Shown here piece after piece: positions 14,922 to 40,056 of a stretch of 64,000 nucleotides of DNA (position 1 is its first letter; every line of letters begins with the position of its first letter). Location: the NCBI GenBank assembly GCA_050948665.1, contig JBMNEH010000001.1, positions 1,979,813 through 2,043,812 on the forward strand, given 5' to 3'. Both the position numbers and the translations under genes were made by a program. Source of the stretch: Christensenellales bacterium (GTDB taxonomy: Bacteria; Bacillota; Clostridia; Christensenellales; UMGS416). Below the pieces are notes generated by a model. That model did not search any database and was not told the DNA's origin. It saw nothing but the letters and a program-made list of their open reading frames with translations.

Positions 14922-16024
14922 ATTTGGATATCCGGCAATTCTGGAAGGATGATGCCCTTGCCCACAAGGAAAACTGCTTCAGCGCCGAAGCCCCTCAGGC
15001 GGCCCTCGGGTTGCGGATGAGCCGGGAATGCGTATACGCGGAGCTGGGTGAGGAAGGCAATCCCTGGGGTGAGGAGCCCCGGGAACGGCAGCTCGACCTC
15101 AACAAACGCTACAACGATAAAGCGGAGAAAATCGTGGGCATACGGCTGCTGCCGGAGGATCTTCCCCCCACTGACGCCGTTTTCCCGGCAGTTCGGCAAA
15201 TCGGTGAGGTTTTCGGCGGAAAATATATCTTTAACGGCTCCTGGTGGCTGGAGGGGTCCCTGGAAACTCCTAAGCAGCTTGAACGGCAGCTGGATTGGAT
15301 CGAAACCATGGATTTCCGCGGCTTCGTACTGCCGGATAACTGGGAAGCCGAGAAAGCGCGTATCTATGAGACCTATGGGATCCGGCCCCCTCTTTACAAA
15401 GGAATGCGGGGGCCGGTCACCCTGGCCTGCTCGGTGTACGGCATTGAGAACCTGATTTTTCTGGGATATGACGATCCGGATCTGTTCGAACGGTTCAGTG
15501 AAACCATAAAAAACGTGATATTCCGATATATCGACCTGATGGGTGAAGAAGCCGGGTATACAAAAGACACCCTGCCCCGCGGCTTTGAGTTTTATGATGA
15601 TAACAGCTGTCTGTTGACCCCGAAGCTGTATGAAAGATTCGGCTATCCTGTACTCCGGGATGTGTTCGCCAGGATGTCCCCCGACCCCGGGGACGTCCGC
15701 TACCAGCACTCCGACTCCGCCATGGGGCATTTGCTGCCCATACTGGGGAGGCTGGATCTGAACGGCTGCAACTTCGGTCCCACGGTGTCGGTGGAGGAGA
15801 TACGAAAGCACCTCCCCAACGCTCGCATAGACGGTCAGCTGGCACCCTTTGCCCTGATGCAGAATGATCTGGCCTGGATAGAAAGGGATGTCCTCCGGGA
15901 TATAGAAGCTGCCCGCAGCCACCGGGGCCTGAACATCACCACCGCCGGCTCGGTCAACAACGGATCCCTACTGACCAGCATGCGCCATATCATGGCGCTG
16001 ATACAGAATTACGGAAGGTACTGA
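14915..16024 (+). CDS. Uroporphyrinogen-decarboxylase (URO-D)-like family protein, function unknown
   Basis: The C-terminal half (HSDSAMGHLLPIL...LNGCNFGP...IDGQLAP) resembles URO-D/MtaA-type TIM barrels. It overlaps the upstream gene by 7 nt. Confidence 0.5.
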   Translation: MLDLDIRQFWKDDALAHKENCFSAEAPQAALGLRMSRECVYAELGEEGNPWGEEPRERQLDLNKRYNDKAEKIVGIRLLPEDLPPTDAVFPAVRQIGEVFGGKYIFNGSWWLEGSLETPKQLERQLDWIETMDFRGFVLPDNWEAEKARIYETYGIRPPLYKGMRGPVTLACSVYGIENLIFLGYDDPDLFERFSETIKNVIFRYIDLMGEEAGYTKDTLPRGFEFYDDNSCLLTPKLYERFGYPVLRDVFARMSPDPGDVRYQHSDSAMGHLLPILGRLDLNGCNFGPTVSVEEIRKHLPNARIDGQLAPFALMQNDLAWIERDVLRDIEAARSHRGLNITTAGSVNNGSLLTSMRHIMALIQNYGRY

Positions 16025-17743: not shown

Positions 17744-17820
17744 GTTTCCGTAGCTCAGCAGGATAGAGCGTCCGCCTCCTAAGCGGAAGGCCGGGAGTTC
17801 GAATCTCCCCGGGAACGCCA
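17744..17820 (+). tRNA. tRNA-Arg (anticodon CCT)
   Basis: 77 nt: GTTTCCG/CGGGAAC acceptor stem, TCCGC-CTCCTAA-GCGGA anticodon arm, TTCGAAT T loop, encoded CCA. Confidence 0.9.
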
Positions 17821-18369: not shown

Positions 18370-19509
18370 TTATTCAGTAAACCGCCCAACCCGCAGCATC
18401 CGATCCGGCAGCCTGGGTATGCGGCCCGTGGTCAGGCGGATAGCCTGCGCTAGGCAGACGGGGATACAGTCGCCGCACTTGGTGCACCAGTGATCAAAGA
18501 TTATATGAATATACCCGACAGCGCCGTCGATGGCGCCGGTAGGGCAAACGCTTCGGCATCCGGCACATCCCGTGCAGGCAAAAGGATCCACATATACCTT
18601 TCGAAAAGCAATGCAGCTGTCCGCCACGCACCTGTGTTTCCTGATATGCTCCTCATACTCTTCTTTATAGACTTTCATAGCGGAAAGGGCAATTCGGGCG
18701 GCGTTTTGTCCCATGGAGCAAGCGGTTGAGAAAGCCATAGCTTCGCCGATTTCCCCGGACAGACGCAGCCCGTCCCAACTTCCCTTATCCGACGTCACGT
18801 CCTTTTGCACAGCCTCCAGCTGCAGCAGACCCTCCCGGCAGAATACACACTTACCGCAGCTATATTTTCGGGAGGTAAGCAGTTTTTTTTGCACCAGGTC
18901 AATCATGCAGTCGGCATCCGTAATCGCGCGGAGTACGCCGTTTTCTATATTAGCCTGCGCCACTGTTATTTGCAGAGCCTCAGCAGTTCTGACCTCGTAC
19001 CCGGTCTGCACCCCCTTTACATGCTCGCCGAGCAGATCGCCAATCCTGGTGTCCGGGTTGATTTTTCGAATATCGTTACCATTGACACTGACATACACTC
19101 CGGGAACATAGCTGCCGGAGGTAATGTCTGAAAGCTCAACCATGGTAACAATATGGGTCAGACAGCAGTCCTTATCGGCGCGGACGTCCACAATACCGCA
19201 AACCAGTTCGATATTATCGGCTTCCGCCTCCGTTTTAAGCGAACGGAATAAATCGTCCGCATACGCAGGAATATGCAGCACCTTGCACTCCGTACCGATG
19301 ATTTGGGCTACCGATTTCATACCGGCAAAGACTTTCCCGGCATCTCTTCGAAGAAGCGTCAAGGCGGCCCCCTCTGTGTCTGCATTGTTCAGGGCGACGA
19401 CCAAAGCACGCGCCCCATGACAGGCAGCGAGCTTTTGCGCCATCTCTTCGGGATAGAGGCCGTATTCCCGCAGCCCGCTGACTTTGATCTGTTCCAAAAG
19501 GTCTGTCAT
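18370..19509 (-). CDS. NuoF/HydB-like Fe-S subunit with a degenerate FMN/NADH site, plus a C-terminal 2x[4Fe-4S] ferredoxin domain
   Basis: The start is set at the ATG at 19509 (MTDLLEQIK), which forms an ATGA overlap with the upstream stop. YSCGKCVFCREG and ACSMGQNA match the NuoF [4Fe-4S] motif. Where NuoF has GLRGRGGAGFP this protein has GLREYGLYP. The C-terminus carries two CxxCxxCxxxCP motifs. Confidence 0.65.
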   Translation of the reverse strand: MTDLLEQIKVSGLREYGLYPEEMAQKLAACHGARALVVALNNADTEGAALTLLRRDAGKVFAGMKSVAQIIGTECKVLHIPAYADDLFRSLKTEAEADNIELVCGIVDVRADKDCCLTHIVTMVELSDITSGSYVPGVYVSVNGNDIRKINPDTRIGDLLGEHVKGVQTGYEVRTAEALQITVAQANIENGVLRAITDADCMIDLVQKKLLTSRKYSCGKCVFCREGLLQLEAVQKDVTSDKGSWDGLRLSGEIGEAMAFSTACSMGQNAARIALSAMKVYKEEYEEHIRKHRCVADSCIAFRKVYVDPFACTGCAGCRSVCPTGAIDGAVGYIHIIFDHWCTKCGDCIPVCLAQAIRLTTGRIPRLPDRMLRVGRFTE

Positions 19510-21635
19510 TTCCCGCTCCCTTCTTCTTTTTCCGCATAGTCCGCCCACAAATGAGGCTTTGCTATTTGCAGCCGCAGATCGCATTGCAAGCATCGGCTGG
19601 CCTCGCAGCCGATGTCGCCATCGCGAATGCCATGATCGTACAAGCAGAAGTTATCCCTTCGGCTTTCGGCGGGGTCGATTCGGCTTTCCTTGCGGCGAAG
19701 GTCACCAAAGCCCTGGATCACGCCGATACGGGGATCGGCCGGCTCCGTCGGGGCCAGCACCTCCGTAATATCGCCATCGCCGCCCAAATAGCGATCGATC
19801 TGGGAGGCCGCCTCTCTTCCAGACTGAATCGCCTGAACAACAGACTTAGTGCCGTAGATACAATCGCCGGCGGCAAAAACACCGGGAATATTGGTGGATT
19901 TGTCCGTTTCCGCGTTGGCAACGAAAATGGAATTGCCCCTGCCCAGCGTTAAACCGGCGGCGGCGGTGATATCCGGGCGTTGCCCGGTGGAAAAAATCAC
20001 CGTGTCGCAAGCGATATGGTGAAAGCTTCCCTCCTCTTTCTCGATGACGGCACGGCCCTCTTCGTCAAAACAGAATCGCCTGACGTTCATAAAGTCCACA
20101 CCCGTGACATGCGCCTCCCCTGTGATCCGTTCAAAGCTCCGTGCGGGATAGACGCGGACGCCTTCTTCCTCAGCCGCCCTGATCTCATCCTGCGAAGCGG
20201 TCATTTGATCCCTGGCCTCCAGGCAAGCCAGGCAAACCTCCTCCGCGCCCAATCGTATAGCCGTCCTGGCACAGTCGAAAGCAACATCGCCACCGCCCAG
20301 CACCACGACCCGATTCCCAATGCCGGCGGGCAACCCCATGGCAACCTCCCGCAGAAATTTAATATTGGGCATGACCTCAGGCAGACCACTGCCCTCCATG
20401 GACAGAATCACGCCATCTGCGCAGCCAATCGCCATCAATACAGCGTCATATTCTTTCAGCAACTCCGCAGGCCTTTCAACCCTGCAGTCGCACTCGAATT
20501 CTATACCCTGATCTGCAATGACCTGCGCCTCCCCGGCGACGACCTCTCCGGGCAGCCGGTAGACGGGAATACCGTAACGCATCATACCCCCCACTGCAGG
20601 CAGCGCTTCCTTCAACGTGACCTGATGCCCCTGCTTACGCAGGTAGTAGGCCGCCGTCAATCCTGCGGGGCCGCCTCCCACAACGCAAATCTTCTTTTCG
20701 GTATCGGGGAGCTGCTTGCCATTGCCCATCCAAGCCCTGCCCGTATCGCGCTCGGCGGCATAGCGTTTGATACCCCGGATGGATATGGGTTCGTTCAGCG
20801 CGCCGCGCCTGCATTCCTCCTCGCAAGCACGGGTGCATACCATCCCCAGCACCCTCGGAAACGGGGCCTTTTCCCGAACCACCGCAACAGCGGCATCGTA
20901 ATTGCCTTCCTTCACGAAGCGGACATATCTTGGAACATCGGTATGCGCCGGGCAGGCGAACCGGCAGGGAACCACCTTGTCCTCCTTTTTTCGGTTTTCA
21001 TGACCTTCCTGCCACTTGTCCTGAATAGTACCGGTGGGACAGACCTCCGCGCAGGCGGTACAGAAGCGGCAGTTGGCATCCAGCAGGAGCCTTCCGTGCA
21101 GGGCATCCACAAAGGTTTCCAGATTCTTCCGCTGATACTGCAGCACCTTTACGCCCCGTACCTCATTGCAGATCCGGACGCAGCGGCCGCAAAGCACACA
21201 TCGATTCATGTCCTGCAGCAGCATGGGATTCTCTTCGATCGGCTTAAACCTCCTTGCCCGCATCTTCATCCGCCCGGTCTTGGGGCCGATGTACTGGATC
21301 AGCGTCTGGAGCTCGCAGTTGCCGTATTTGGAGCAGGTAGAACAATCTTCCGGATGCCCCGCGAGCAGCAGTTCCATCGCTAGCATCCGCAGGCGCCTGA
21401 TTTCCTCGCTGTCCGTACGGATCTTCAGTCCCTCGCGGGCTTTCATCATACAGGAAGGAAAGACGCCTTTCTTTCCCTCCTCCTCCACGATACACAGCCG
21501 GCAAGCGCCAAGGGGGCTCAAGTCACTGTGATGGCAGAGGTGCGGAATATAAATACCGTTTTCCAGCGCACAGTTCAAAACGTTTGCCCCTTCTTCCGCA
21601 TTGAGATTGATACCGTTGATTGTAATACGCACCAT
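19506..21635 (-). CDS. Fusion of a NuoG/HydA-N-type [2Fe-2S]/[4Fe-4S] domain with a GltD-like NAD(P)H-dependent FAD oxidoreductase
   Basis: N-terminus: ITINGINL...ACRLCIVE (2Fe-2S), HPEDCSTCSKYGNCELQ and CVLCGRCVRIC clusters. C-terminal part: ICVVGGGPAGLTAAYYL...VGGMMRYGIPVYRLP...VVVLGGGDVAFDCART...GVFAAGD, typical of the glutamate synthase small-subunit family. Confidence 0.75.
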   Translation of the reverse strand: MVRITINGINLNAEEGANVLNCALENGIYIPHLCHHSDLSPLGACRLCIVEEEGKKGVFPSCMMKAREGLKIRTDSEEIRRLRMLAMELLLAGHPEDCSTCSKYGNCELQTLIQYIGPKTGRMKMRARRFKPIEENPMLLQDMNRCVLCGRCVRICNEVRGVKVLQYQRKNLETFVDALHGRLLLDANCRFCTACAEVCPTGTIQDKWQEGHENRKKEDKVVPCRFACPAHTDVPRYVRFVKEGNYDAAVAVVREKAPFPRVLGMVCTRACEEECRRGALNEPISIRGIKRYAAERDTGRAWMGNGKQLPDTEKKICVVGGGPAGLTAAYYLRKQGHQVTLKEALPAVGGMMRYGIPVYRLPGEVVAGEAQVIADQGIEFECDCRVERPAELLKEYDAVLMAIGCADGVILSMEGSGLPEVMPNIKFLREVAMGLPAGIGNRVVVLGGGDVAFDCARTAIRLGAEEVCLACLEARDQMTASQDEIRAAEEEGVRVYPARSFERITGEAHVTGVDFMNVRRFCFDEEGRAVIEKEEGSFHHIACDTVIFSTGQRPDITAAAGLTLGRGNSIFVANAETDKSTNIPGVFAAGDCIYGTKSVVQAIQSGREAASQIDRYLGGDGDITEVLAPTEPADPRIGVIQGFGDLRRKESRIDPAESRRDNFCLYDHGIRDGDIGCEASRCLQCDLRLQIAKPHLWADYAEKEEGSGK

Positions 21636-21659
21636 GGGCCTTGCCTCCTTTCTTCCCGC

Positions 21660-23108
21660 TCAGACCAAATCAATGTAGGCGGCAGCTTCCTTGCCCGCGA
21701 TACGGCCGGTGTTCAGGGCAAAGCCCATGGAGTTACCCGGTAACAAGAACATATAGCTGTCGTCATAGATGTTGCATGCGTCCGCGCCCACGGCATATAG
21801 ACCGGGTATCGGGTCAAATTCACGGTCACAGCACTCACAATTCTCGTTGATGCGGATGCCGCCAACGGTACCGTAGCCGGAAGGGCGCAGGGTTGCAGCA
21901 AAATAGGGCGCCTGAATAAGGGGGCGCAAATACCGGCGGTCCTTAAAAAATTCTTCATCGCAGGAATCACAGTAGATATTATATGCCTCTACAGTCTTTC
22001 TTAAATTCCGCGCGTGGATTCCGGCCTTTTCTGCCAGATCCTCCATCGTATCCGCCGCAAAGAAGGTGTCAAATCCCTGTACCCTCGCCTGTTCCAGCCC
22101 GTCATAGAAGTCCGATACATCCGGGTTGGTACGGACAAGGCTGGTCACGTCAACGCCGTTGCGGATATAGCCGTGAACAATGGAGGAATCCACAACGGAA
22201 AAGCATGTCCGCCTTTTCTGATGGGATACGACATTGCCCAGGAATGTTGTGTTCTGCATGTGTTCCTCGTTCATGACCCGCTTTCCGTTCAGATTGACCA
22301 GCAGATTAGGTTGCGTGAACACGTTTGCAACGGAACCCGTAATGGAGCCGCCGTTTTCTACCTCAGCAATCAGCTCCACCCTAACAGGGGTCTTTTCCGC
22401 ACCTGCGTCCCAGGCCATCCGCAGTCCGTCTCCCATCAAGCCGGGGATGGCAAAGGAAAACAGGTCTTCGCCGTGAAGAAATCCCGTCTCCTCTCGGATG
22501 AGTACCTTATTTGCGCCGGCGCCGCCAGTCGCCAGTATAACCGCCTTGCAGTCGATGCGTACTTCCCCGCCCGACTTATCGGCGGCAACGAGACCGCACA
22601 CCCTGCCGTCCTTCTTCAGAATCTTCCCCCCGGGGGTCTCCAATAAAAACTGAACGCCCAGTTCCAGAGCCCGCGCATATAAAGCCTTCACCATGAATGA
22701 CGCGGCGCGGGGACCAATACTTTGGTTCGTCTTAACGATATGCCAGGTAGGTTCAGATTTGGGGAAGTAGCGGAAGGCGCCCTCAAATTCCACGCCCATC
22801 TCCTCCAGCCATTCAATGGTATCGGCCGACTGGGCGAAATATCGCTTGACCAGACGGGCGTCCGCATTATAGTGGGTATACTCCATGAACATATTGAAGG
22901 CTTTTTCTACCGTGATATCCTGCATCTGCCGGCGATGGTACTTCGTGCCGATGCCGAGAGGACCCATGCCCATGTTGGCGGCGCCGCCCACCGTGGCGGC
23001 TTTCTCGCAAACAATGACCCTGGCTCCGCACTCCGCCGCCTGAACCGCTGCGGAGAGACCGGAGGGGCCGCCCGCGATGACCGCTACATCGGTTTCATAT
23101 TTTTTCAT
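21660..23108 (-). CDS. FAD-binding flavoprotein reductase/dehydrogenase of the fumarate reductase / KstD (FAD_binding_2) type
   Basis: DVAVIAGGPSGLSAAVQAAECGARVIVCEKAATVGG dinucleotide fold, VILATGGAG, and the C-terminal GLYAVGADA...NSMGFALNTGRIAGKEAA. No signal peptide. Confidence 0.75.
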   Translation of the reverse strand: MKKYETDVAVIAGGPSGLSAAVQAAECGARVIVCEKAATVGGAANMGMGPLGIGTKYHRRQMQDITVEKAFNMFMEYTHYNADARLVKRYFAQSADTIEWLEEMGVEFEGAFRYFPKSEPTWHIVKTNQSIGPRAASFMVKALYARALELGVQFLLETPGGKILKKDGRVCGLVAADKSGGEVRIDCKAVILATGGAGANKVLIREETGFLHGEDLFSFAIPGLMGDGLRMAWDAGAEKTPVRVELIAEVENGGSITGSVANVFTQPNLLVNLNGKRVMNEEHMQNTTFLGNVVSHQKRRTCFSVVDSSIVHGYIRNGVDVTSLVRTNPDVSDFYDGLEQARVQGFDTFFAADTMEDLAEKAGIHARNLRKTVEAYNIYCDSCDEEFFKDRRYLRPLIQAPYFAATLRPSGYGTVGGIRINENCECCDREFDPIPGLYAVGADACNIYDDSYMFLLPGNSMGFALNTGRIAGKEAAAYIDLV

Positions 23109-23368
23109 AACGACCTCCTGATCATAGGTCTCTTAAAAGGATTCGGATTGCGCACATACATCAGACGATCACAGCACAACCGGGGGTTCGACAGTTGTCT
23201 GCACGCCGCCTCCCGGCACGGTCACTTTCGGATCAGAGGCACGGGCCGGCGCTGTTAGGGCTTTGTCCGGCGGACGAGACATTTCCTCACTGCTCTCAGT
23301 ATCCCGTACAGTGCCGAACCCCTTTTTTCATCATTTCTTCTTTTTCGTTTCCGTTTTTCGCTTCGTAT

Positions 23369-24421
23369 TCATGTTTCGGGATGCACTGCCTTGCTGGTGC
23401 GGGCAGACTCTCTCACCGCCTCCATGATTCGTAGCACCCTGCGCACCTGGGCGGTCTTGACTGCCGGTTCCTCCTCGCCGTTCATTGCCCGAATGAATTG
23501 ATCGAAGTAATCGCGGTGGCTGACATTGACCTCAGGCAGTGGCTCTTCGATCAGCAGACCGGGGGGAGGGGGACCAAAGCTGCGGGTGGGACCGGCGGCG
23601 GTCATGGTGATCCTGCCGGGTACGTTTTGCAGCAGATGCGCGGTTCGGACGATTTTGCCTTCCCCGTCCCATCCGTCGATGATGGCGCTTCCTTCATTGC
23701 CACCGATGAACCATCCCCGTTTGGGAGTCAGATAATAGGTGCCCAGTTCGATCACACCGGTAACGCCGTTCCCGAATTTGAGCAAAATGTTGAAATAATC
23801 ATCCACCCATTCGTTGATGACATTGCGCAAATCCGCATATAAGCTCACCACCGGCGTGTCCACCATCTCCAGCATCTGGTCGATCAGGTGTACACCCCAG
23901 TCATAGAGCATGCCTCCGCCCATTTCCGGGTAAATATGCCAGTCGTGCATATTCCCGTTAAAACCGTAAAGCTGGCTCTTGATCACATAAGGTTGCCCCA
24001 CCATGCCCCGGTCGTAGACCTCCTTCATAATCCGGAAATCACGGTCCCAGCGGCGCTGATGATGTACCGTGAAAACCACGCCCGCCCTTTGGGCAGCCTC
24101 TGCCATACGGTCGAACTGCGTAACCGTCATGGCAGCCGGCTTTTCACAGATAATATGCTTGCCTGCTGCCGCTGCTTTTTCCACCATCTCCAGATGGCTG
24201 GGATTTGGAGTGGAGATGATAACCGTGTTGATGTCGGCGCGGGACAGCATCTCGTCCATACCGGCGTAGGTTTCAACCCCGGCAGGCACGTCCTTCAGCT
24301 GTTCGGGATTGATATCCGCCACAGCTGTAAGACGGATCTGCTCCTCGGGGAAGGTCGCCAGCATATCCGCGACACAGTGGCCCATAAAACCAAAACCGAC
24401 GACGCCGAATTTAATTTGCAT
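23369..24421 (-). CDS. Gfo/Idh/MocA family oxidoreductase (DgpA-like candidate glycoside 3-oxidoreductase)
   Basis: IKFGVVGFGFMGH Rossmann N-terminus and the EKPAAMTV motif. It lies 3 nt downstream of the TIM-barrel gene. Confidence 0.7.
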   Translation of the reverse strand: MQIKFGVVGFGFMGHCVADMLATFPEEQIRLTAVADINPEQLKDVPAGVETYAGMDEMLSRADINTVIISTPNPSHLEMVEKAAAAGKHIICEKPAAMTVTQFDRMAEAAQRAGVVFTVHHQRRWDRDFRIMKEVYDRGMVGQPYVIKSQLYGFNGNMHDWHIYPEMGGGMLYDWGVHLIDQMLEMVDTPVVSLYADLRNVINEWVDDYFNILLKFGNGVTGVIELGTYYLTPKRGWFIGGNEGSAIIDGWDGEGKIVRTAHLLQNVPGRITMTAAGPTRSFGPPPPGLLIEEPLPEVNVSHRDYFDQFIRAMNGEEEPAVKTAQVRRVLRIMEAVRESARTSKAVHPET

Positions 24422-24424
24422 AGT

Positions 24425-25483
24425 TCAACCTCCGATTGCTCTTTTCAACGCTTCCTGATGACGGCGAACCTGTTCGATGGAATCCACGGGACGATCTACT
24501 CTGAGATGCTCGCCGCCTTCATACTCGGTAGACAGATAGCCCTTATACCCGGCTTTTTTGAGCGCGTCCACCACCTCGGGAATGGCAGTAGCGGTTTCCA
24601 CATAGTCCTCATTGGTATTGTAGCACTTGGCATGGATATGGAAGATGCAGTCGATATTGTCGATAAGATCCTGCGGTTCGGACCAGGAAAACACGAAACT
24701 TTCGCCCGCATAATCTAAATCAACCTGACCCCCGCCGGCGCGCTTGACGGCCTCCATCATTTCGCCCATCCCGTTCGCCATGCGGTATTCCATATTCGCC
24801 CTGCCCAAATTCAGATCATACCTGATCTTTGTAAAGCTCTTTGCCACACGGTCGGCGTAGAAATCATCCACGATTTGGATACATGCCAGCTTTGCACCTC
24901 GGCGCAGGTACTTTTCCCGAACAACGTCCGGGATATTTTTGCAGAAAATACCCATATCGGGAATAAAGCCAAAGAATTTTGTACCAGTGCGGGTGATCAT
25001 TTCCATATAGCCGTCCGCCCAAGAGGAGTTCAAAGAGAAAGGGGCGTGCACCTCCAGGCCGATTTTTACGCCCATCTGCTCCGCGTATTCCAAAGAACCC
25101 TCGATCACGGGCATTGGGGTGGACACCAGGGTACGCAGGTTGGAAAAACCCAGCATGGACGCCAATCGAATATCCCGCTTCATCATGTTGACCTGTTCTT
25201 TCAAGGTCAGCGTGCGGTTATCATAGAGCTTGAACTCCAAAAACGCGTCATAGCAGGAAGGGTCGAGCTTATATTGTTTGAGCCAACCAAACCACTTTTC
25301 CCGGAACGCCTCTTCCTCGATGGGGAGCGGAAATCTGCGGATCATCTGCTCCGGGAGCAGTTCCACACCTGTGGCACTGGTTCTGGCAACCTCCCGCAGG
25401 CAATCTTCCAAATCTAACTGCTTATTATAGAATTCGTCCTGATAGCTGTACAGGGAAACGCTTCTTTTGATATCGTAATGCAT
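24425..25483 (-). CDS. Xylose-isomerase-like TIM-barrel protein (sugar phosphate isomerase/epimerase family), a candidate C-glycoside deglycosidase alpha subunit (DgpC-like)
   Basis: 352-aa AP-endonuclease-2/XI-like barrel (GVELLPEQ, GLEVHAP, HIHAKCY, STEYEG metal-ligand-type motifs), paired with a DUF6379-like small subunit directly upstream. Confidence 0.6.
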   Translation of the reverse strand: MHYDIKRSVSLYSYQDEFYNKQLDLEDCLREVARTSATGVELLPEQMIRRFPLPIEEEAFREKWFGWLKQYKLDPSCYDAFLEFKLYDNRTLTLKEQVNMMKRDIRLASMLGFSNLRTLVSTPMPVIEGSLEYAEQMGVKIGLEVHAPFSLNSSWADGYMEMITRTGTKFFGFIPDMGIFCKNIPDVVREKYLRRGAKLACIQIVDDFYADRVAKSFTKIRYDLNLGRANMEYRMANGMGEMMEAVKRAGGGQVDLDYAGESFVFSWSEPQDLIDNIDCIFHIHAKCYNTNEDYVETATAIPEVVDALKKAGYKGYLSTEYEGGEHLRVDRPVDSIEQVRRHQEALKRAIGG

Positions 25484-25494
25484 GGTATTTCTCC

Positions 25495-25887
25495 TTAGAT
25501 TTCAAAGTCCGCGGAGCAGTCCGCTTCCACCGTAAAGGGCATATAGGAGGGTGCGATAGACTGATGACAATCAATATGATGTTTGCCGGGTGTCAGGCCG
25601 CCTTTTTTCATGACCGTTACGGTAGCGAATTCACCAAATTCCCAGCGATACTCCGGGTCAATCACCGTGCGACATTCGTCCAGTGTGAACATCTCCTCAT
25701 TGACTGTCAGACGCACATCCTCCCGGTCTGCCGTCTTTCCGTCCACAACTACTTTAATGTCTCTCAGGATGGACAAAGTGAAAGAGCGGTAATACTGAGC
25801 TTTGATCTCAAAGCTGTAACCGATGATCTCACCGTCGCGCAACACATTCATAAATGCGTTTGGGTTAAAATACTTTCTTCCGATCAT
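25495..25887 (-). CDS. DUF6379-like small protein, a candidate C-glycoside deglycosidase beta subunit (DgpB-like)
   Basis: 130 aa. The pattern F..N....G.I.GY......YYRS..LS.......VDG....ED......E.FTL.E.......RWEFGE.ATV.V.K.GGL..G.H......SY.PF matches my recollection of CGD beta subunits. RBS GGGAGGAACGTC-ATG. Confidence 0.55.
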   Translation of the reverse strand: MIGRKYFNPNAFMNVLRDGEIIGYSFEIKAQYYRSFTLSILRDIKVVVDGKTADREDVRLTVNEEMFTLDECRTVIDPEYRWEFGEFATVTVMKKGGLTPGKHHIDCHQSIAPSYMPFTVEADCSADFEI

Positions 25888-26064
25888 GACGTTCCTCCCA
25901 AAGCGATAAAATTACAACGTAAACATAATACGTTCTGTTTTGTCTATCCTCATTCCGATTCTTGTTGCAATGTCACACAAATTTGACCCATACCAAAGTC
26001 GCTTCCGTAAAAAGGACAAAAATCACATGCGTTTCTTGTCGTCCCGTCCCTATGCTTTGCGATA

Positions 26065-28464
26065 TCAGGAATACTGGCAGGTTAAATGGACATAAGTGAT
26101 CTCGTTGGGTTCCATGGTGATATCGAATGACAGCCTCCCGTTATCAGCATCCAGCCGCTTCATTGCCATTCCGGGGGTCACGATGCGGCTTAAATACCGG
26201 ATCTCGTCCCGGCTCATTTCCTCGGGGCTTGACATGGACACCCATTCATCCTGAAGGCTGCCGCTGCGTTGGTTTACCGTCAACCGTTTAAGTAGGTATG
26301 TCCCGCCCGCTTTGCCGGGCAGGGAGAAATGGATGCTTCGCTTTTTGACATCCTCAAAAAGATTGTTTTGTTCCGAAATCGGGATCTCACCCTCCCGCAT
26401 CAGCGAGTACCTGTGGCTCATATTCTTCAGGTTATGGCATACGATGCGCCAGTTGCCGGAACCATTGTCGGTAATGATATAGCAGTCTTCCCGCCGGTAC
26501 ACATATCGGCCCAGATGGTTCATGAAATCAAATGCGTAAAATGCCGGCTTTCGAATACCGTCGCGTGATAACAAGCCGCCTCCGCCGTACAGGATGGATC
26601 GCGTATCTGCGTAGGCGCTGTACAGGTCGGTTCCGACCCAGTAGCCCATCACATCCGCAAGATCAAGGCTCTCCAAAATATCCCGGACGAGATATGCACC
26701 CTTCATGCAGCTGTCGTTCAGACTGTTCCGGCTAGAGATGGAAAAATTCCACTCGGACACATGCAATTCCTTGTCTGTGAATCCCTCTTCGTCCATGGCG
26801 TCCCGCACAAAGTGCAGGGAGTTATGCAGCAGATTGGCCGCCCGGCTCTGATTTCTGTCCCTGTCCATGGTATACAGTGTATAGGGATAGCAGTACAGGG
26901 AAATAAAATCCGGATGCTGCTCTTTCTTTTGCCATGCGCGCAGCAGCATTTTGACCTGCTCGCCGCCATAGCGCATGGTCAAACCGCCGCCACCCAGTTT
27001 CGCGCCGGGACACAATTCCCGTATCTGGGCCGCAGCCACGTTGAATCTTTCCAGATACCGTTCCCCCATAGACCTAACCAAATCAGGATCCTCTATGGTC
27101 CAGTTCTGCTCGCCTTCCGCGCACCAAATCTCAAAATACCAGCTTTCCAGCTGCTCCGCGCTGTATCGGTTCATCAGATGGATTAACAATCTACGCATAA
27201 AATAACGGATGCTGTCCGCGGATTCATCTACCTGCGCTTTGTCCGTATGGATGACATCAAAGGCGTCGCGCAGCAGAAGCTTTGGTTTGGGACGCAGCTC
27301 GATATAGGGCTTCATGCCGTTTTGAAGCAGGAAATCGATGACCTGATCTAATCTGTTGAAGTTGAAGCCGGTCTCTACGTCACCCAACTGCATTCCCGCG
27401 GAATGTATATCCCAGAACCGCACATACTCAAAATGGAGCTCCTGCTTTAAAAGTAAAAGGTGTCTTTGGATATCGGACTGTAACAGGTCCTCCGCCGTAC
27501 CGATATTGATCATCCGGCACCAGTTGCGCTTAAGCAGCCGCTTAGTGGCGCTTTCTAGCGTAACGGCATGCGTCAACTGATTGACATGCTTTGTTTCCGG
27601 GATAAAGTATCGGTCGAAATGCTGTTCCAGCCGCTTGCGGGTATCCGTTTGTGAGGTTTCGTTCTGGGTCGCTGGACCATGCTGACTGATCCACTGACGA
27701 CGGTATTCCGTCGGGGTCATATTATAAGTCTGCTTGAACGCCTTGTTCAGCGCTGCTGAGGAAGCAAAGCCAGCCTCCGTAGCGATGCGGACAACAGAAA
27801 GATCCGAGTGAAGCAACTGAGAAACCGCATAATTCAATCGCACCTTGCTCAGATACGCGGCAAAGCCCATGCCGAAGTGCCGTTTAATATATTTGGAAAG
27901 ATAAGTGTAACTCAAATACGTCCGCTTGGCCAGATCCTCCAGGCGAATGGGCTTATCAAAGTTCGTCTGTATGAAGGCGGCGATCTCATGTTTTCTGGCA
28001 TCGAATTTTTGGGTCTCCTCCGGGTAATGATCGTTCTCCCTGTTTAAAAGGAAATCTGTGGTCAAGATGTGTAAAAACTCATAGAAAAGGCTGTTCAGGT
28101 AGATAATGTCCTTGCCCTGTCCGTAATACTCTTCGAAAATGATTTTGCGGAAAATGCGGCGGAGTTCTTCGCAGCCCTCCGTATTTCCGTCGGTGGTGTT
28201 GCACCAGAAGAGCACCATATCCTGCTTCATCAGGGAGCAAAGCCGGGAATAGGAAATGTGGAGAGTGACCCCCAAAAAATCTCCTTCCGAAAGGTAAGCG
28301 TGGTTTTTATCCGCGTTTACCAACAGAAAGTCATCCTTATGCAGACGGCACCGCTTGTCCTCCAGTGTAAACACAGTCGTTCCGTCCAGAACGTAGAAAA
28401 ACTCGATGTCTGTATGGGAATGCATAGACGACAATGGCTGAAAAACGAAAGAAAACGTAAACAA
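26065..28464 (-). CDS. One-component regulator: cupin + AraC HTH fused to a GH39-like domain
   Basis: The N-terminal cupin (HSHTDIEFFYVLDG) and AraC HTH (LEDLAKRTYLSYTYLSKYIKRHFG...IATEAGFASSAALNKAFKQTYNMTPTEYRR) are followed by a roughly 500-aa GH39-type barrel (EYVRFWDI...YFEIWCAEGE...LHVSEWNF). The start is set at the TTG at 28464 behind GAGGAGG; the ATG at 28425 is an alternative. Confidence 0.7.
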   Translation of the reverse strand: MFTFSFVFQPLSSMHSHTDIEFFYVLDGTTVFTLEDKRCRLHKDDFLLVNADKNHAYLSEGDFLGVTLHISYSRLCSLMKQDMVLFWCNTTDGNTEGCEELRRIFRKIIFEEYYGQGKDIIYLNSLFYEFLHILTTDFLLNRENDHYPEETQKFDARKHEIAAFIQTNFDKPIRLEDLAKRTYLSYTYLSKYIKRHFGMGFAAYLSKVRLNYAVSQLLHSDLSVVRIATEAGFASSAALNKAFKQTYNMTPTEYRRQWISQHGPATQNETSQTDTRKRLEQHFDRYFIPETKHVNQLTHAVTLESATKRLLKRNWCRMINIGTAEDLLQSDIQRHLLLLKQELHFEYVRFWDIHSAGMQLGDVETGFNFNRLDQVIDFLLQNGMKPYIELRPKPKLLLRDAFDVIHTDKAQVDESADSIRYFMRRLLIHLMNRYSAEQLESWYFEIWCAEGEQNWTIEDPDLVRSMGERYLERFNVAAAQIRELCPGAKLGGGGLTMRYGGEQVKMLLRAWQKKEQHPDFISLYCYPYTLYTMDRDRNQSRAANLLHNSLHFVRDAMDEEGFTDKELHVSEWNFSISSRNSLNDSCMKGAYLVRDILESLDLADVMGYWVGTDLYSAYADTRSILYGGGGLLSRDGIRKPAFYAFDFMNHLGRYVYRREDCYIITDNGSGNWRIVCHNLKNMSHRYSLMREGEIPISEQNNLFEDVKKRSIHFSLPGKAGGTYLLKRLTVNQRSGSLQDEWVSMSSPEEMSRDEIRYLSRIVTPGMAMKRLDADNGRLSFDITMEPNEITYVHLTCQYS

Positions 28465-28495
28465 TATATTTTCCTCCTCTCTCAGCGATATCGTG

Positions 28496-28524
28496 ATTAT
28501 ATCAGATTCGCATAGGATAGGCAA
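28496..28524 (-). promoter_or_regulatory. Candidate promoter of the AraC::GH39-like gene
   Basis: On the minus strand, TTGCCT (28524-28519), a 17-nt spacer, then TATAAT (28501-28496), just downstream of the terminator hairpin. Confidence 0.4.
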
Positions 28525-28545
28525 AACGGAGTTCAGATACGTACA

Positions 28546-28590
28546 TCAAAAAGCAACCGGGATCCAGCGTTCGCGCCGGATCCCGGTTGC
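28546..28590 (-). terminator. Rho-independent terminator of the Gfo/flavoprotein unit
   Basis: A perfect 13-bp stem, gcaaccgggatcc/ggatcccggttgc (28553-28590), with a 12-nt loop, followed on the minus strand by TTTTTGATG. Confidence 0.75.
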
Positions 28591-28592
28591 GA

Positions 28593-29597
28593 TTATTTCA
28601 GTTTTACGTTATGATGCGCGGTCTCATCTACAGGCCAGGGAGGTCGGTCAAAATCCGCAAAGGGCTGTTTCAGCTCCTTCAGATTCCGGATGGTACCGGA
28701 AGGCTGGGCCTGGGTCTTGATTTCGATGGAATGTTCCAGCTTGCCGTCCCAGCGCAGGCGGCTGCGGTCCAGCTCCTCGGGGACATATTCCACATGGATT
28801 CTGCCGTCTATGATCTGCAGGCTGCCTCGGATACCGCAAACAACGCAATCCACGGATCGCCTGTCACGGGAAACCTGCAAGAGACGGGTATGGCAGACAG
28901 GGCAACACCCCTCTTCATCGCCCCGCCATGCGGTCCTCTCTTCCTCGGACTCGGCGTTGACGGAAGCGACAATGTTCCTGCCGACTTTTTTCATGCGTTC
29001 CATCATGACGGGGTTGCCTGCTACGTTCTCGAAAGCCATTGCGCCGTGGTACTCTACGGTGTCCACCACATCGATCCCCAGAGGGAAAGTGAACTCAAAC
29101 ATCATGGGCAGCGTCAGCACGATCCAGTTCTCAGTCATGGCACCGCCGACCGAGATGAGCGCCGCGCTGCGCTTTTTGAAAGAGCGGATGTCAGGCAGTT
29201 TCTCTTCAGGCAGGCCTGCCGCAAGTCCTTCCTCATATGCGGCCTTTCGGAAGGTGATGTCATGGCTGGGGCCGATGCGGTCGCAGACGGTCTTAAAGCG
29301 CCCGGTTACTGAAGTTTCATAGGTGGGGCATGCCAGGATTACCGCATCGGATTGCATGATGCTCTCGTCCAAAATGTCAAAATCGTCATGTCGGACGCAA
29401 TAGCCCCGCCCTCTGCCGGTCATCATGCCCACAGTGCAGGCGATACAGCCAGTGCAGTTGGAAATATTCAAGTCGTCCGCCCGCAGAAAAGCGGTCTCGT
29501 ATCCCGCTTCCTCACAGACCATCAATGCCTGTTTGACCATAACGTCGCAGTTGCCCACCTTTCTGCCAAAAGAGACTCCCAGTACTTTTTTAGCCAT
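28593..29597 (-). CDS. Iron-sulfur flavoprotein (Isf / NADPH-dependent FMN reductase-like) with a C-terminal zinc-ribbon extension
   Basis: The start is set at the ATG at 29597 (MAKKVLGV) behind AAGGAGA. It has a flavodoxin-like fold with the compact cluster motif CTGCIAC...C. The C-terminal half contains CCPVC...CVVCG. Confidence 0.6.
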   Translation of the reverse strand: MAKKVLGVSFGRKVGNCDVMVKQALMVCEEAGYETAFLRADDLNISNCTGCIACTVGMMTGRGRGYCVRHDDFDILDESIMQSDAVILACPTYETSVTGRFKTVCDRIGPSHDITFRKAAYEEGLAAGLPEEKLPDIRSFKKRSAALISVGGAMTENWIVLTLPMMFEFTFPLGIDVVDTVEYHGAMAFENVAGNPVMMERMKKVGRNIVASVNAESEEERTAWRGDEEGCCPVCHTRLLQVSRDRRSVDCVVCGIRGSLQIIDGRIHVEYVPEELDRSRLRWDGKLEHSIEIKTQAQPSGTIRNLKELKQPFADFDRPPWPVDETAHHNVKLK

Positions 29598-29734
29598 ATA
29601 CTTCTCCTTTTCTTTGGAGGACCGGTGCCGTATTATACACATACTGTCGGGAACCTTATGGATCCTCCGGCTGTCACGATTGCAAAATTTATTGAAGTTT
29701 CGCGCCTATGAAGGTTGCGGCGTCGTATTTCTCT

Positions 29735-30844
29735 TTAAAAGAAGACCTCTTTTCCGATTTCGGCGGAGTGATAGATCGCGTCCAGGATCTGTGTGACAAC
29801 GAATGCCTGCTCGGGCCTAACCAGCGGCTCCCTGTCATTGAGAATGGCATCCAGCCATTGGTCCTGCTCGCGGACCGCTTCCGCAGCGGCGCCTCCCTCA
29901 AAAAAGTCGACCACCCCTGCGGGGGATATGGTCTTCTCCATCAGCTGACCATGTTCAACGGTGTTGTAAATCAGTTCATCCCTGGGATAACTGCCGCCGT
30001 GGCGAATCTCCGCGCCGGCTTTGGTACCGCACAGCGTGGTGGAAGCCTCCATGGATTTGAGAATATTCAGCGCCCAGCTTGCTTCCAGAAAAATGGCGGC
30101 GCCGTTTTTCATTTTTATCAAGCCAAAGGCGGAGTCCTCCACCTCAAAGGTCTTGGGGTCCCAGGGACCGAACACGTTTCCGTCCGGACCGTGTTTCTCC
30201 CGCCCCAGCTTGAAAAAGACCTGCCCGCTAACCGATGCCGGCTCATAATTGTTCATCATCCACAAGGTAAGATCCAGCGCATGGGTACCGATGTCGATCA
30301 AAGGACCGCCGCCCTGCAGCGCTTTATTTGGAAACACACCCCAGGTAGGAACCGCGCGGCGGCGCAGAGCATGGGCTTTGGCAAAGTAGATGTCACCCAA
30401 CTCGCCAGCCTCACAGGACGCGTGAAGAGTCGTAGTGTCGTTGCGGAAACGGTTCTGGTAACCGATGGTAAACTTCTTGCCAGACTTTTTCCATGACTCG
30501 ATCATTTTCGCGGCGCTCTCCGTATCGTGGGCCATGGGCTTTTCGCACATAACATGCTTGCCCGCCTCGAAGGCAGCTACGGTCACCGGGCAATGAACAA
30601 CATTGGGCGTGCAGACATGGACCGCGTCGGTCTCCACGGTCTTGTCCGCCAGCATTTCGTTGTAGTCGGTATAGCACTTTGTGCCGGGTACGCCGTACTT
30701 CGCCGCGGCCTTCTCCGCACGCTCTGGCAGAATATCGCAGAAAGCGACCATCTCACAGCGATCGGAAAATTTCGCGAGAGAAGGCATATGCTTCTGGTTG
30801 GCGATGCCGCCGCAGCCGACAATCGCAATTCTCACTTTTTCCAT
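29735..30844 (-). CDS. Gfo/Idh/MocA family oxidoreductase (second copy)
   Basis: VRIAIVGCGGIANQKH..., EKPMAHD, GGGPLIDIGTHALD. Confidence 0.8.
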   Translation of the reverse strand: MEKVRIAIVGCGGIANQKHMPSLAKFSDRCEMVAFCDILPERAEKAAAKYGVPGTKCYTDYNEMLADKTVETDAVHVCTPNVVHCPVTVAAFEAGKHVMCEKPMAHDTESAAKMIESWKKSGKKFTIGYQNRFRNDTTTLHASCEAGELGDIYFAKAHALRRRAVPTWGVFPNKALQGGGPLIDIGTHALDLTLWMMNNYEPASVSGQVFFKLGREKHGPDGNVFGPWDPKTFEVEDSAFGLIKMKNGAAIFLEASWALNILKSMEASTTLCGTKAGAEIRHGGSYPRDELIYNTVEHGQLMEKTISPAGVVDFFEGGAAAEAVREQDQWLDAILNDREPLVRPEQAFVVTQILDAIYHSAEIGKEVFF

Positions 30845-31029
30845 TGTTATCCTTCCTTTTTCATTCCTAATATTTTTGTCTCAATTCTCATTTTAGCAAA
30901 TCGGACGGCGCTCTGATTCGTATTTCTTGTCATGAAATACAATCGGATTCACCTATCGGACCGTGGTGAAAAAGCACGGAGCAAATTTTGCAGTCATTCT
31001 CTTGTATATTTTTGTTGTTTCGCCTCCGG

Positions 31030-31434
31030 TCAGATTATCTGCGCAAACGCTATGACGTAATCTCCCTCCCCGGCGATACTGACAAGAAGCTCCCTTCCCC
31101 CTGTCCGATCCAATACCGACCGAAGAGCGGCGGAGTACAGGATCATCGGGCATCCATCCTCCCGCTGCAGCGTTTCTACGATGCGCAAATCGAAAAGATT
31201 TGTCTGCTTGCAAGAAAGCGCCTTATAAACCTCCTCCTTTACCGCGAACCGTCCCGCAAAAAAACGCCAGTAATCCGCGGCATGCGCCGCCAGGGCAAGC
31301 TCCGCCGGCGTAAAGGTCCTCCGAACGAAGGCGCCCCCTAGGCGTTCGTCCATCGCGCGCAAGTCGGAAACGTGCACGCAATCGATGCCGACGCCTTTGG
31401 GCGTGTACTGCGCGTCGACCCAGTCCTTCAGCAT
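31030..31434 (-). CDS. acpS: Holo-ACP synthase (4'-phosphopantetheinyl transferase, AcpS type)
   Basis: 134 aa with GIDCVHVSDL...FTPAE...FAGRFAVKEEVYKAL and the C-terminal SIAGEGDYVIAFA. TAATG overlap with the upstream gene. Confidence 0.75.
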   Translation of the reverse strand: MLKDWVDAQYTPKGVGIDCVHVSDLRAMDERLGGAFVRRTFTPAELALAAHAADYWRFFAGRFAVKEEVYKALSCKQTNLFDLRIVETLQREDGCPMILYSAALRSVLDRTGGRELLVSIAGEGDYVIAFAQII

Positions 31435-32438
31435 TACGTTTTATTCCCCGCAGCCCGCGCGGCAGAGATTACGATATTGCCCTTGATTTCCTCTAGAGGT
31501 GCGCTGCGGGAACAGTCGCATACGATGCCGCGAAAGCCCTGCAACATGGGACCGTAGGCATTGGCACGGCCGAACAGCTGAATGAGCTTCACCGCGATAT
31601 TGCCCGCGTTCAAATCGGGCCATATGATTACATTCGCCCTGCCCGCCACCGGGGACAGCCTGCTGACCTTCTTTTGCGCCACCGCGGGGACAATGGCGGC
31701 ATCTAGCTGGAATTCGCCGTCGATGGCAAGATCCGGCCGCAGCGCGTTGGCGATTGCGACCGCTTCCCTTACCCTGTCGACCTTCTCCCCTTGTCCGGAG
31801 CCTAAGGTGGAGTAGCAAACCATGGCGCATCGGGGCTCCCAGTCCAGCAGCTCGCGTACCGTGTCGCAGGCGGAGATTGCGATGGAAGCCAGCTGTTCGG
31901 CGTTGGGATCGGTGCATACCGCACTGTCGCCCACTGCCAGCAGACTGCCCTCGCTGCCTTCATAGCCGGGGATATCGCATAGCCCGATGGAAGAAACCGT
32001 GGTAATGCCGGGTCTGAGGCCGATCATCATCTGACCCGCCAGCAATACCTCCCCCGTGCTGTTGTCGATGCCCGCGAAAGTCACGTCCACATCCCCGACC
32101 GCCTGCATCGCCATGGCAAAATATAGCGGATTTTCCATCCGACGGTGCAACGCGTTCGCTTTGAGTATCCTGCCGGGCTGATTCACATAGCGGTCAATCA
32201 GCGCGACCCTGTATGCGGTGTCATGGATGTCTGCGAAGCTGAATACGGAGGTGTCATAACCTCGGCGGGAAGCCAGGGCGCACAACGCGTCGGCGTTGCC
32301 TACCGGCACGGGGACGATCAGCCCCTCCCGTCCGGTTTCATAAGCCGCCCGCATCATCTTTTCGTTTGCAGCCTCGGGGAATGCAACTCTCTGGGGACGT
32401 GAACAGGCTTTTTCGTACAGCCTGCCAAATATGTTCAT
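31434..32438 (-). CDS. Phosphate acyltransferase of the Pta/Ptb family
   Basis: RVAFPEAANEKMMRAA..., ...RANVIIWPDLNAGNIAVKLIQ...AYGPMLQGF...DCSRSA, typical PTA_PTB motifs. ATGA overlap with the ACP stop. Confidence 0.8.
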   Translation of the reverse strand: MNIFGRLYEKACSRPQRVAFPEAANEKMMRAAYETGREGLIVPVPVGNADALCALASRRGYDTSVFSFADIHDTAYRVALIDRYVNQPGRILKANALHRRMENPLYFAMAMQAVGDVDVTFAGIDNSTGEVLLAGQMMIGLRPGITTVSSIGLCDIPGYEGSEGSLLAVGDSAVCTDPNAEQLASIAISACDTVRELLDWEPRCAMVCYSTLGSGQGEKVDRVREAVAIANALRPDLAIDGEFQLDAAIVPAVAQKKVSRLSPVAGRANVIIWPDLNAGNIAVKLIQLFGRANAYGPMLQGFRGIVCDCSRSAPLEEIKGNIVISAARAAGNKT

Positions 32439-32677
32439 GACAGTTCTTTCTCAACCAGGTCAATGATCTGGCCGATGGTTGCGCACACTGAGGCGTCCTG
32501 CAAAGCGATCATCACATCCAACTCGTTCTCCAACTCCGAGATCAGTCCGACCATTTGAATAGAGACACCCTTCAGATCATACTTGAAGGAAGTGTCTGCC
32601 GTCAGCCCGGCGGCCTCCCTTCCGTAGACCATGGCGACCGTTTCAATCACCTTTGCTTCCAGTTCTTTGTGATCCAT
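32435..32677 (-). CDS. Acyl carrier protein-like (80 aa)
   Basis: Four-helix ACP-like length and pattern, with a candidate phosphopantetheine serine in DLKGVSIQMVGLISELE (VSI in place of the canonical DSL). Confidence 0.6.
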   Translation of the reverse strand: MDHKELEAKVIETVAMVYGREAAGLTADTSFKYDLKGVSIQMVGLISELENELDVMIALQDASVCATIGQIIDLVEKELS

Positions 32678-32702
32678 ACCCTAACACACCTTTCTTGTAT
32701 GA

Positions 32703-33110
32703 TTACTCGTCCAAATCAAATACGACGGTCTTATACCCGTTCCGCTGAAAAATAGCCGCCCTGATCCTAATCGGCAGTCTCTTTACCAGGTCGTCCCGGT
32801 TCTTCCTGCTGATGCCGCGAACCACGGCATTCAGGCGGGCGCCTTCCTTAAGCACCACCTCTCCGTAGGCATACCTGCCCAGTAGTCTGTATTCCGGCTT
32901 GGAGGATAGAGCTGCGGGCAGAACGATGGAGTGCATCGCAGCCTCACCGTCGATCTCCACCCATTCCATTTCAAAGCATCCGCAGGTGTTGCAGGCATAC
33001 ACAGGCGGAAACTCCACAGCCCCGCATGCGCGGCACCTTCGGCCGGTGATTTTTCCCTCTTCCAGATTCTGATAAAATCGCTCCACTACTTTTTCCAACT
33101 TGATGCTCAT
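32703..33110 (-). CDS. DUF35 Zn-ribbon / OB-fold protein (thiolase partner)
   Basis: CRACGAVEFPPVYACNTCG rubredoxin-like ribbon followed by an OB-fold-length C-terminus. It lies 13 nt downstream of the thiolase-like gene. Confidence 0.7.
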   Translation of the reverse strand: MSIKLEKVVERFYQNLEEGKITGRRCRACGAVEFPPVYACNTCGCFEMEWVEIDGEAAMHSIVLPAALSSKPEYRLLGRYAYGEVVLKEGARLNAVVRGISRKNRDDLVKRLPIRIRAAIFQRNGYKTVVFDLDE

Positions 33111-33123
33111 ATTCCGCTCCTCC

Positions 33124-34461: not shown

Positions 34462-34493
34462 GCAATACTGCTCCTTTCGCCGCGGGCGGTCTT

Positions 34494-40039: not shown

Positions 40040-40056
40040 TGAGGTGGTAACTGCAA

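Follow-up and report, generated by a model that had tools for sequence, protein, structure and literature searches.

A predicted heteromeric C-glycoside deglycosidase and its gene neighbourhood in a Christensenellales bacterium

Does a three-gene cassette of a Christensenellales bacterium encode an enzyme system that cleaves the C-C bond of C-glycosides, or does it belong to ordinary sugar metabolism, as the public annotation of its central protein implies? The cassette occupies positions 23369-25887 of a 64,000-nucleotide stretch of DNA (the window; GenBank assembly GCA_050948665.1, contig JBMNEH010000001.1). An original prediction, made from the letters of this stretch, had read it as a DUF6379 beta subunit, a TIM-barrel alpha subunit and a Gfo/Idh/MocA oxidoreductase that act by oxidation of the glycoside and subsequent lyase chemistry, and this composition was borne out by sequence comparison, conserved residues, predicted fold and synteny. 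We consider it quite probable that the three genes code for a heteromeric, Mn2+-type C-glycoside deglycosidase (CGD) of the DgpBC type together with a glycoside 3''-oxidoreductase, likely acting on C-glucosyl flavones. The cassette lies within a putative flavonoid-degradation gene island and consists of the following genes, with protein lengths in amino acids (aa):

25495..25887, minus strand: dgpB-like gene, beta subunit (CGDB/DUF6379), 130 aa; assigned by PF19906, matches in the PDB and synteny
24425..25483, minus strand: dgpC-like gene, metal-dependent TIM-barrel alpha subunit, predicted to be the catalytic one, 352 aa; assigned by matches in the PDB, residues and fold
23369..24421, minus strand: DgpA2-type Gfo/Idh/MocA oxidoreductase, candidate glycoside 3''-oxidase/transhydrogenase, 350 aa; assigned by PDB entry 9m37_A

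The coordinates of these three open reading frames (ORFs) on the minus strand had been predicted exactly, as had the gaps of 11 nucleotides (nt) between the dgpB-like and the dgpC-like gene (25484-25494) and of 3 nt between the dgpC-like and the dgpA2-like gene (24422-24424). A Shine-Dalgarno sequence stands ahead of every start codon, in the form GGGAGG-N6-ATG (130-aa gene), AAGGAG-N8-ATG (352-aa gene) and GGAGG-N7-ATG (350-aa gene), the last overlapping the stop codon of the alpha gene. The same gene string, coding for 100% identical proteins, was found on two independent public contigs, one of 173 kb from a JGI metagenome and one of 17 kb from Logan.

The 130-aa protein, for which a profile search against PF19906/DUF6379 had been proposed as a check, matches this Pfam family ('C-glycoside deglycosidase beta subunit') over profile positions 3-112 of 112 with E=1.3e-34 and 118.9 bits (cut-off 27.6). 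Among solved structures, the best match is W974-1 DgpB2 (9m3a_B, E=1.8e-15), followed by P581a DgpB1 (2.7e-13), DfgB (2.7e-12), DgpB (1.2e-10) and the beta subunit of the Deinococcus aerius TR0125 CGD (1.9e-10); the protein also matches the N-terminal part of the fused CGD of Microbacterium testaceum. PF19906-type beta subunits are a small and specific family, as a search of 1.84 billion cluster representatives returned 313 proteins at E<=1e-3. Some of these are fusions of 434-537 aa, and a natural fusion of beta and alpha is also found in PDB entry 8qrz. For synteny, the proteins of the window were mapped onto 80 related loci, taken as contigs from one genome per species and carrying alpha subunits 71-90% identical to the one described here. 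In 79 of 82 loci the dgpB-like gene immediately precedes the alpha gene.

The 352-aa protein matches PF01261 (E=2.9e-13) and, in phmmer, all eight solved CGD alpha sequences, with E-values from 1.6e-71 to 6.5e-24. The lowest of these values belongs to 8qvc_A, the C-glucosyl deglycosidase of D. aerius TR0125 (42% identity); DgpC, DfgA, AgCarB2, MtCGD, P581a DgpC1 and W974-1 DgpC2 follow at about 1e-24 to 1e-42, with an identity of 37% to DfgA in the aligned parts and of 29% to DgpC. In AgCGD2, the Mn2+ site was defined by structure and mutagenesis as E147, D179, H269, K271 and E305, and the catalytic histidine with its supporting glutamate is H149/E307 in this enzyme and H143/E301 in PuCGD (Mori et al. 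2021, PMC8563793). When the protein from the window is aligned to DgpC with HMMER, its residues E144, D176, H284, K286 and E320 fall on PuCGD E141, D173, H263, K265 and E299, and H146 and E322 fall on H143 and E301. Thus, the metal site and the catalytic His/Glu pair, which the original prediction had proposed to inspect, are kept in full. Across 79 orthologues the metal-site residues are invariant, H146 is present in all 79 and E322 in 78, the remaining one carrying E322K.

An AlphaFold2 model of the alpha subunit (mean predicted local distance difference test score 81, predicted template-modelling (TM) score 0.83) was ranked against the PDB with Foldseek. The top 16 entries are CGD alpha chains with TM-scores of 0.64-0.85, after which the E-values drop from 1e-16 to 6e-10 at sugar isomerases and ketose epimerases (9-15% identity, TM about 0.5). 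This ranking bears directly on the reading in which the 352-aa protein is an ordinary sugar(-phosphate) isomerase or epimerase and the small ORF an unrelated hypothetical gene. Such a reading can draw on the public names of the protein ('sugar phosphate isomerase/epimerase family protein', 'TIM barrel protein', 'AP endonuclease'), on the PF01261 fold, which is common to ketose 3-epimerases, and on NCBIfam, in which both CGD subunits (and the flavone reductase-like protein described below) lack a model. However, the epimerases rank below all CGD chains, the small ORF is a full-length PF19906 match, the adjacency of the B and C genes is nearly invariant, and the active site of CGDs is matched in the H-x-K and E-x-E motifs, so that we give this reading hardly any credence. 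The label 'sugar phosphate isomerase/epimerase' is an under-annotation, because sequence, residues and fold all match CGD alpha subunits.

Residues ~183-268 of the alpha subunit (window positions 24680-24937) form a helical insert between barrel strands, which is well conserved within the orthologue group. Compared to the D. aerius CGD it has ~25 additional residues (at 216-244), and in DfgA it is nearly absent; to judge from the sequence it may act as a lid that sets aglycone specificity.

The defining features of the CGD family that can be read from sequence and predicted fold are all present at this locus, namely a PF19906 beta subunit, a TIM-barrel alpha subunit, the metal site, the catalytic pair, adjacent genes and a partner predicted to make the 3''-keto substrate. 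The closest solved relative is the D. aerius TR0125 CGD (8QVC/8QVD/8UMC), composed of a 347-aa TIM-barrel alpha and a 125-aa DUF6379 beta subunit. It is the best match both in sequence (42% over 317 aligned residues) and in fold (TM 0.85/0.92, root mean square deviation 2.6 Å), with identical E-x-H, D, H-x-K and E-x-E motifs, but it comes from an aerobic Deinococcus and its beta subunit is only weakly similar. Its cluster presumably uses a FAD/GMC-type oxidase rather than a Gfo/Idh/MocA enzyme. The DgpA/B/C system of the human gut strain PUE (PuCGD; 7BVR/7EXZ/7XRF, DgpA 7XR9) shares the three-protein chemistry, the B-then-C order, a host among the gut Clostridia and the mutagenised H143/E301 pair; its alpha subunit is only 29% identical, its beta subunit matches with E=1.2e-10, and Y303 of PuCGD is replaced by Gly324 in the window. 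DfgA/DfgB (EuCGD) with DfgE of Eubacterium cellulosolvens (7BVS/7DRE) is a CGD of a gut and rumen member of the Lachnospiraceae with activity towards 6-C-glucosyl flavones, and in DfgA, too, the position of Y303 is taken by Gly. In contrast to the alpha subunit described here, DfgA is 290 aa long, with most of the 183-266 insert missing; its gene order is alpha then beta (by protein names), and the dfgABCDE cluster includes the O-glucosidase pair DfgCD (PMC11170127). Of the DgpB/C pairs of W974-1 and P581a (9M3A, 9M3B), W974-1 DgpB2 provides the best beta match, whereas the alpha subunits of these strains are distant (E=2.6e-42 and 2.4e-24); the activities of these proteins are known from PDB titles only, and a literature search found no paper describing them. 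Taken by its sequence, the cassette is well supported as a further CGD of an uncharacterised but widespread gut clade. The alpha orthologues of this clade, 71-90% identical, occur in Lachnospiraceae, Oscillospiraceae, Christensenellales and Anaerovoracaceae from the guts of humans, mice, rabbits, horses and ruminants.

The partner enzyme in the cassette, of 350 aa, matches PF01408, PF22725 and PF02894 (E=2e-25 to 1e-16) and carries the motifs CEKP and DWGVH. Its best solved relative is P581a DgpA2, crystallised in complex with isoorientin (9M37/9M39; 9m37_A, 'P581a DgpA2 and isoorientin complex', E=2.4e-129), to which it is 58% identical over the full length, while the match to PUE DgpA reaches only E=5.7e-20. 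A second Gfo/Idh/MocA gene, the presence of which had been noted before, lies further upstream:

29735..30844, minus strand: counterpart of strain PUE DgpA, predicted Gfo/Idh/MocA C-glucoside 3''-oxidase, 369 aa; assigned by PDB entry 7xr9_A

This protein matches 7XR9 DgpA with E=2.9e-164 and 235 of 361 residues identical (65%), carries the motifs CEKP and DIGTH, and matches W974-1 DgpA1 with E=4.9e-140. For comparison, 66% identity to DgpA was called 'very high' in the Catenibacillus genome paper (PMC11170127).

The order B-C-A, together with the second oxidoreductase and the attached reductase genes, had been taken to set this locus apart from the textbook dgpA-B-C arrangement, which does not hold for the order. 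Since the 369-aa protein is the DgpA counterpart and the enzyme in the cassette a DgpA2-type paralogue, the locus is one in which dgpA has been split from B-C-A2. A DgpA-like gene (77-86% identity; called at a threshold of at least 75%) lies directly upstream of B-C in 34 of the 68 loci with enough upstream sequence, and in 19 of 67 loci C is immediately followed by an A2-like gene. By this synteny the common arrangement is dgpA-dgpB-dgpC(-dgpA2), the textbook order with an extra oxidoreductase, and we rejected B-C-A as a new arrangement. At this locus two genes, a flavone reductase (FLR) homologue and an AraC/GH39-type regulator, stand between dgpA and dgpB-dgpC-dgpA2, an arrangement shared by the window and its nearest relatives (loci L003, L006, L013 and L037). 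The layout with two oxidoreductases and an FLR-like neighbour refines a known system and is no departure from it. Carriers of related loci include Mediterraneibacter glycyrrhizinilyticus, three Faecalicatena species, Schaedlerella arabinosiphila, Pseudobutyrivibrio, Catenibacillus, Blautia, Oscillospiraceae and Anaerovoracaceae, and their hosts include humans, mice, rabbits, horses and ruminants. In several loci (L014, L017, L033 and L034) there is a second B/C pair, 30-32% identical. In two others, two more AP_endonuc_2 TIM-barrel proteins and a third Gfo/Idh/MocA protein are encoded upstream of dgpA (L047:5131-8215 and L008:4219-6991), together with an Opp-type ABC transporter, an MFS_2 glycoside transporter and a carboxylesterase; the extra TIM-barrel and Gfo/Idh/MocA genes possibly represent a DfgCD-like O-glucoside system or a glycal hydratase.

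The reaction can be outlined by homology to PuCGD/AgCGD2 and DgpA, from which all of its steps are taken. DgpA (29735-30844) and/or the DgpA2-type enzyme, with tightly bound NAD+, would oxidise the 3''-hydroxyl group of a C-glucosyl polyphenol to the 3''-keto form. The alpha subunit, presumably in complex with beta, would then bind this 3''-keto-glycoside at the metal held by E144, D176, H284, K286 and E320, and H146, placed by E322 via a water molecule, would abstract the C2'' proton. Breakage of the aryl-C1'' bond in a step resembling beta-elimination would release the aglycone and 2-hydroxy-3-keto-glucal, with the 130-aa subunit contributing to the aglycone pocket. Finally, the glycal would be hydrated to 3-keto-glucose, which the NADH form of the oxidoreductase would reduce to glucose, rendering the cycle redox-neutral; this fate of the glucal follows the summaries in PMC12101588 and PMC10628242.

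The gene that bears most closely on the substrate is the following:

28593..29597, minus strand: FLR homologue, FMN_red family; 334 aa from the start set by the gene caller, 349 aa for the longest ORF, which extends to 29642

The FLR homologue matches PF03358 (E=1.9e-11) and, as the sole match in the PDB, 7d38_A (E=1.4e-35 over FLR residues 2-279). This entry is the FLR of Flavonifractor plautii (PMC7862272). Overall identity is moderate; two of the apigenin contacts of FLR, H271 and I275, recur unchanged, and both proteins have the Cys-rich CxxC...CxxC insert. The gene lies directly downstream of the DgpA counterpart, and copies 74-85% identical were seen in 9 related loci, with distant paralogues in ~20 more.

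As far as sequence and gene context can indicate, the natural substrates are most likely C-glucosyl flavones such as orientin, isoorientin, vitexin and isovitexin, because the FLR homologue adjoins dgpA, because the DgpA2 to which the A2 enzyme is similar was crystallised with isoorientin and because the orthologue group is widespread in bacteria of herbivore and human guts. A weak additional argument is that Gly324, like the Gly of DfgA, replaces PuCGD Y303, for which a clash with 6-C-glucosyl flavones was proposed (PMC8563793). A CGD with another natural substrate, i.e. the xanthone mangiferin, the isoflavone puerarin, or C-glycosides of the anthrone or ellagitannin type, appears unlikely in view of the FLR homologue, the isoorientin-bound DgpA2 and, weakly, Gly324, even though the DgpA counterpart is 65% identical to a puerarin oxidase and a species known from metagenome-assembled genomes, CAKRHR01, with a 79%-identical orthologue (L017), rose along with the conversion of mangiferin to norathyriol (PMC12101588).

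We regard it as more doubtful still that the pair is chiefly a beta-eliminase of 3-keto-O-glycosides acting on O-glucosyl flavonoids, with C-C cleavage absent or incidental. The class of the bond is indeed not fixed by homology, as the original prediction had rightly held: according to Bitter et al. 2023 (PMC10628242), PuCGE cleaves 3-keto O- and C-glucosides alike, and according to PMC11239390 DgpA-type enzymes oxidise both O- and C-glycosides. Genes for O-glycoside hydrolases of families GH3 and GH78 are moreover present in the window, which speaks for the use of O-glycosides but also against this reading, since ordinary O-glycoside hydrolases are already encoded nearby. All solved proteins with a PF19906 partner, however, were deposited as C-glycoside deglycosidases, and the O-glucoside activity of E. 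cellulosolvens and C. scindens was assigned to DfgCD (PMC11170127). Dedicated O-eliminases belong to other families (PMC10628242): AtOGE of Agrobacterium tumefaciens acts on 3-keto-glucosides with effectively the same Mn2+ active site, reached by convergent evolution, but it is unrelated in sequence and O-glycoside-specific, and the abstract mentions no DUF6379 partner for it.

Several points weigh against a heteromeric CGD for C-glucosyl flavones, the reading that we prefer. The nearest solved enzyme is 42% identical in alpha and its beta match is weak (E=1.9e-10), the longer variable region of alpha compared to 8QVC and DfgA may mean a different aglycone pocket, and the literature search returned no published activity for any member of the orthologue group. 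Within the operon, as it stands in the window, there is no transporter gene. To the ambiguity of PuCGE and the correlation of an orthologue-bearing species with conversion of a xanthone, both given above, it has to be added that the flavone assignment draws only on gene context and on the title of the PDB entry for DgpA2.

Between the FLR homologue and the cassette lie a terminator-like element and a gene for a putative regulator:

28553..28590, minus strand: strong intrinsic-terminator-like hairpin closing the dgpA/FLR-like unit, with a 17-bp stem including 12 G-C pairs, followed by a T-run
26065..28464, minus strand: AraC-family regulator carrying a cupin and a GH39-like domain, 799 aa when read from the ATG; its longest ORF begins at 28524

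The latter protein contains Cupin_2, HTH_18/HTH_AraC and full-length Glyco_hydro_39 (E=2.6e-47) domains. From this architecture it is likely the local regulator and probably senses a glycoside, and its GH39 part may serve to sense a ligand instead of acting as an enzyme. Homologues with 24-76% identity are encoded in 38 of the 82 loci. The TTG start of the regulator falls within a promoter-like site (28524..28496), which suggests the 799-aa ATG start (28464) over the 819-aa TTG ORF; the promoter scan as a whole was no better than shuffled sequence (12 sites found compared to 10.7 expected), and only the 17-bp terminator was used as evidence for transcription units. Rfam at the gathering threshold returned three transfer RNAs (tRNAs) only in the window, and no riboswitch or leader near the cassette. 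We propose that B-C-A2 form one transcription unit, perhaps together with the downstream reductase genes, and that dgpA and the FLR-like gene form another.

These downstream genes follow after a 260-nt spacer without a convincing terminator between the dgpA2-like gene and the first of them:

21660..23108, minus strand: vinylphenol-reductase-like FAD flavoprotein, 482 aa; PF00890 (FAD_binding_2), E=1.4e-47
19506..21635, minus strand: 2Fe-2S / NuoG-type 4Fe-4S / GltD-like NAD(P)H flavoprotein, 709 aa; Fer2_4, NADH-G_4Fe-4S_3, Fer4_20 and Pyr_redox_2
18370..19509, minus strand: Fe-S protein with NuoF C-terminal 4Fe-4S and 2x[4Fe-4S] ferredoxin domains, 379 aa; PF10589 (E=3.3e-16) and Fer4

The start of the 379-aa gene overlaps the stop of the 709-aa gene, and the same length is called on public contigs. 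Of the NCBIfam models, NF053717 (vinyl phenol reductase VprA) fits the 482-aa protein best, over its full length and with E=6.5e-83, but the score of 279 bits is below the curated equivalog cut-off of 600, by which the protein is a relative and not a member of VprA. It also differs in that the VprA model describes a single protein, whereas the one in the window is accompanied by two Fe-S proteins. The 709-aa protein matches NF009454/NF009410 at about 1e-125, its gene is found alongside the 482-aa one in relatives, and it is likely the electron-input subunit for the flavoprotein. A fumarate, urocanate or tricarballylate reductase was considered for the 482-aa flavoprotein and rejected: H365, R402, H504 and R544 of Shewanella Fcc3, which we take to be the residues binding and protonating fumarate, align to E, Q, Y and L, and a dicarboxylate substrate is therefore unlikely. 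The trio (18370-23108) recurs beside dgpBC in many Clostridia; of 34 related loci flanked by 9 kb or more on either side, 19 encode the 482-aa flavoprotein, and either Fe-S partner is encoded in 12. No described function turned up for the trio.

The trio is a candidate aglycone or glycal reductase. We would suggest tentatively, as a possibility with the odds against it, that dgpBC-A2 are the front end of a larger, undescribed module in which the trio forms a new NAD(P)H- or ferredoxin-driven reductase complex acting on the aglycone or on 2-hydroxy-3-keto-glucal. On the aglycone, it might for example reduce a flavone or chalcone at a C=C bond in conjugation with the phenol. What might be new at this locus is only the VprA-like/Fe-S trio, which lies outside 23369-25887.

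Six genes at 31030-35618 (minus strand) code for a 4'-phosphopantetheinyl transferase, a PTA-like phosphotransacylase, an 80-aa acyl carrier protein (ACP), a DUF35/zf-ChsH2 protein, a 445-aa SCP-x-type thiolase-like protein and a butyrate/acetate-kinase-like protein, and judged by these members look like an ACP-linked, C-C cleaving and ATP-yielding module. In ~8 other loci, e.g. L005, L054, L067 and L068, some of these genes are likewise linked to dgpBC. A tRNA-Arg(CCT) at 17744-17820 (plus strand) borders the all-minus-strand gene block 18370-35618, and this tRNA together with alpha identities of 71-90% across several bacterial families hints that the block moves horizontally. The regions 1603-4579 (minus strand), 12931-16024 (plus strand) and 39053-52994 are rich in genes for plant glycosides: they contain a GH3 fragment, a GH78 alpha-L-rhamnosidase, GH5, GH2 and two carboxylesterases, as well as Fe-ADH, Amidohydro_2 and URO-D-like genes, a histidine kinase with an AraC response regulator and an ABC sugar transporter. 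The GH78, GH3 and carboxylesterase genes fit the use of plant glycosides. Three large ORFs of the window (5744-8302, 48778-50127 and 54361-56289) gave no match in Pfam.

The core enzyme chemistry proposed here will not surprise a specialist. C-glycosyl flavonoids are nevertheless abundant in cereals, grasses and herbal medicines, and few bacterial systems are known to free their bioactive aglycones. If the larger module exists, C-C cleavage would be coupled to an energy-relevant reduction and, together with the occasionally linked ACP, thiolase-like, phosphotransacylase and kinase genes, would outline a complete fermentation pathway for C-glycosylflavonoids unlike the known FLR-CHI-Fcr-Phy route. 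The locus supplies candidate partners for the deglycosidase in the form of two oxidases, an FLR-like reductase, a VprA-like Fe-S reductase complex and a GH39-domain regulator, and a correct annotation in place of 'sugar phosphate isomerase/epimerase' would improve the prediction of C-glycoside converters in gut metagenomes.

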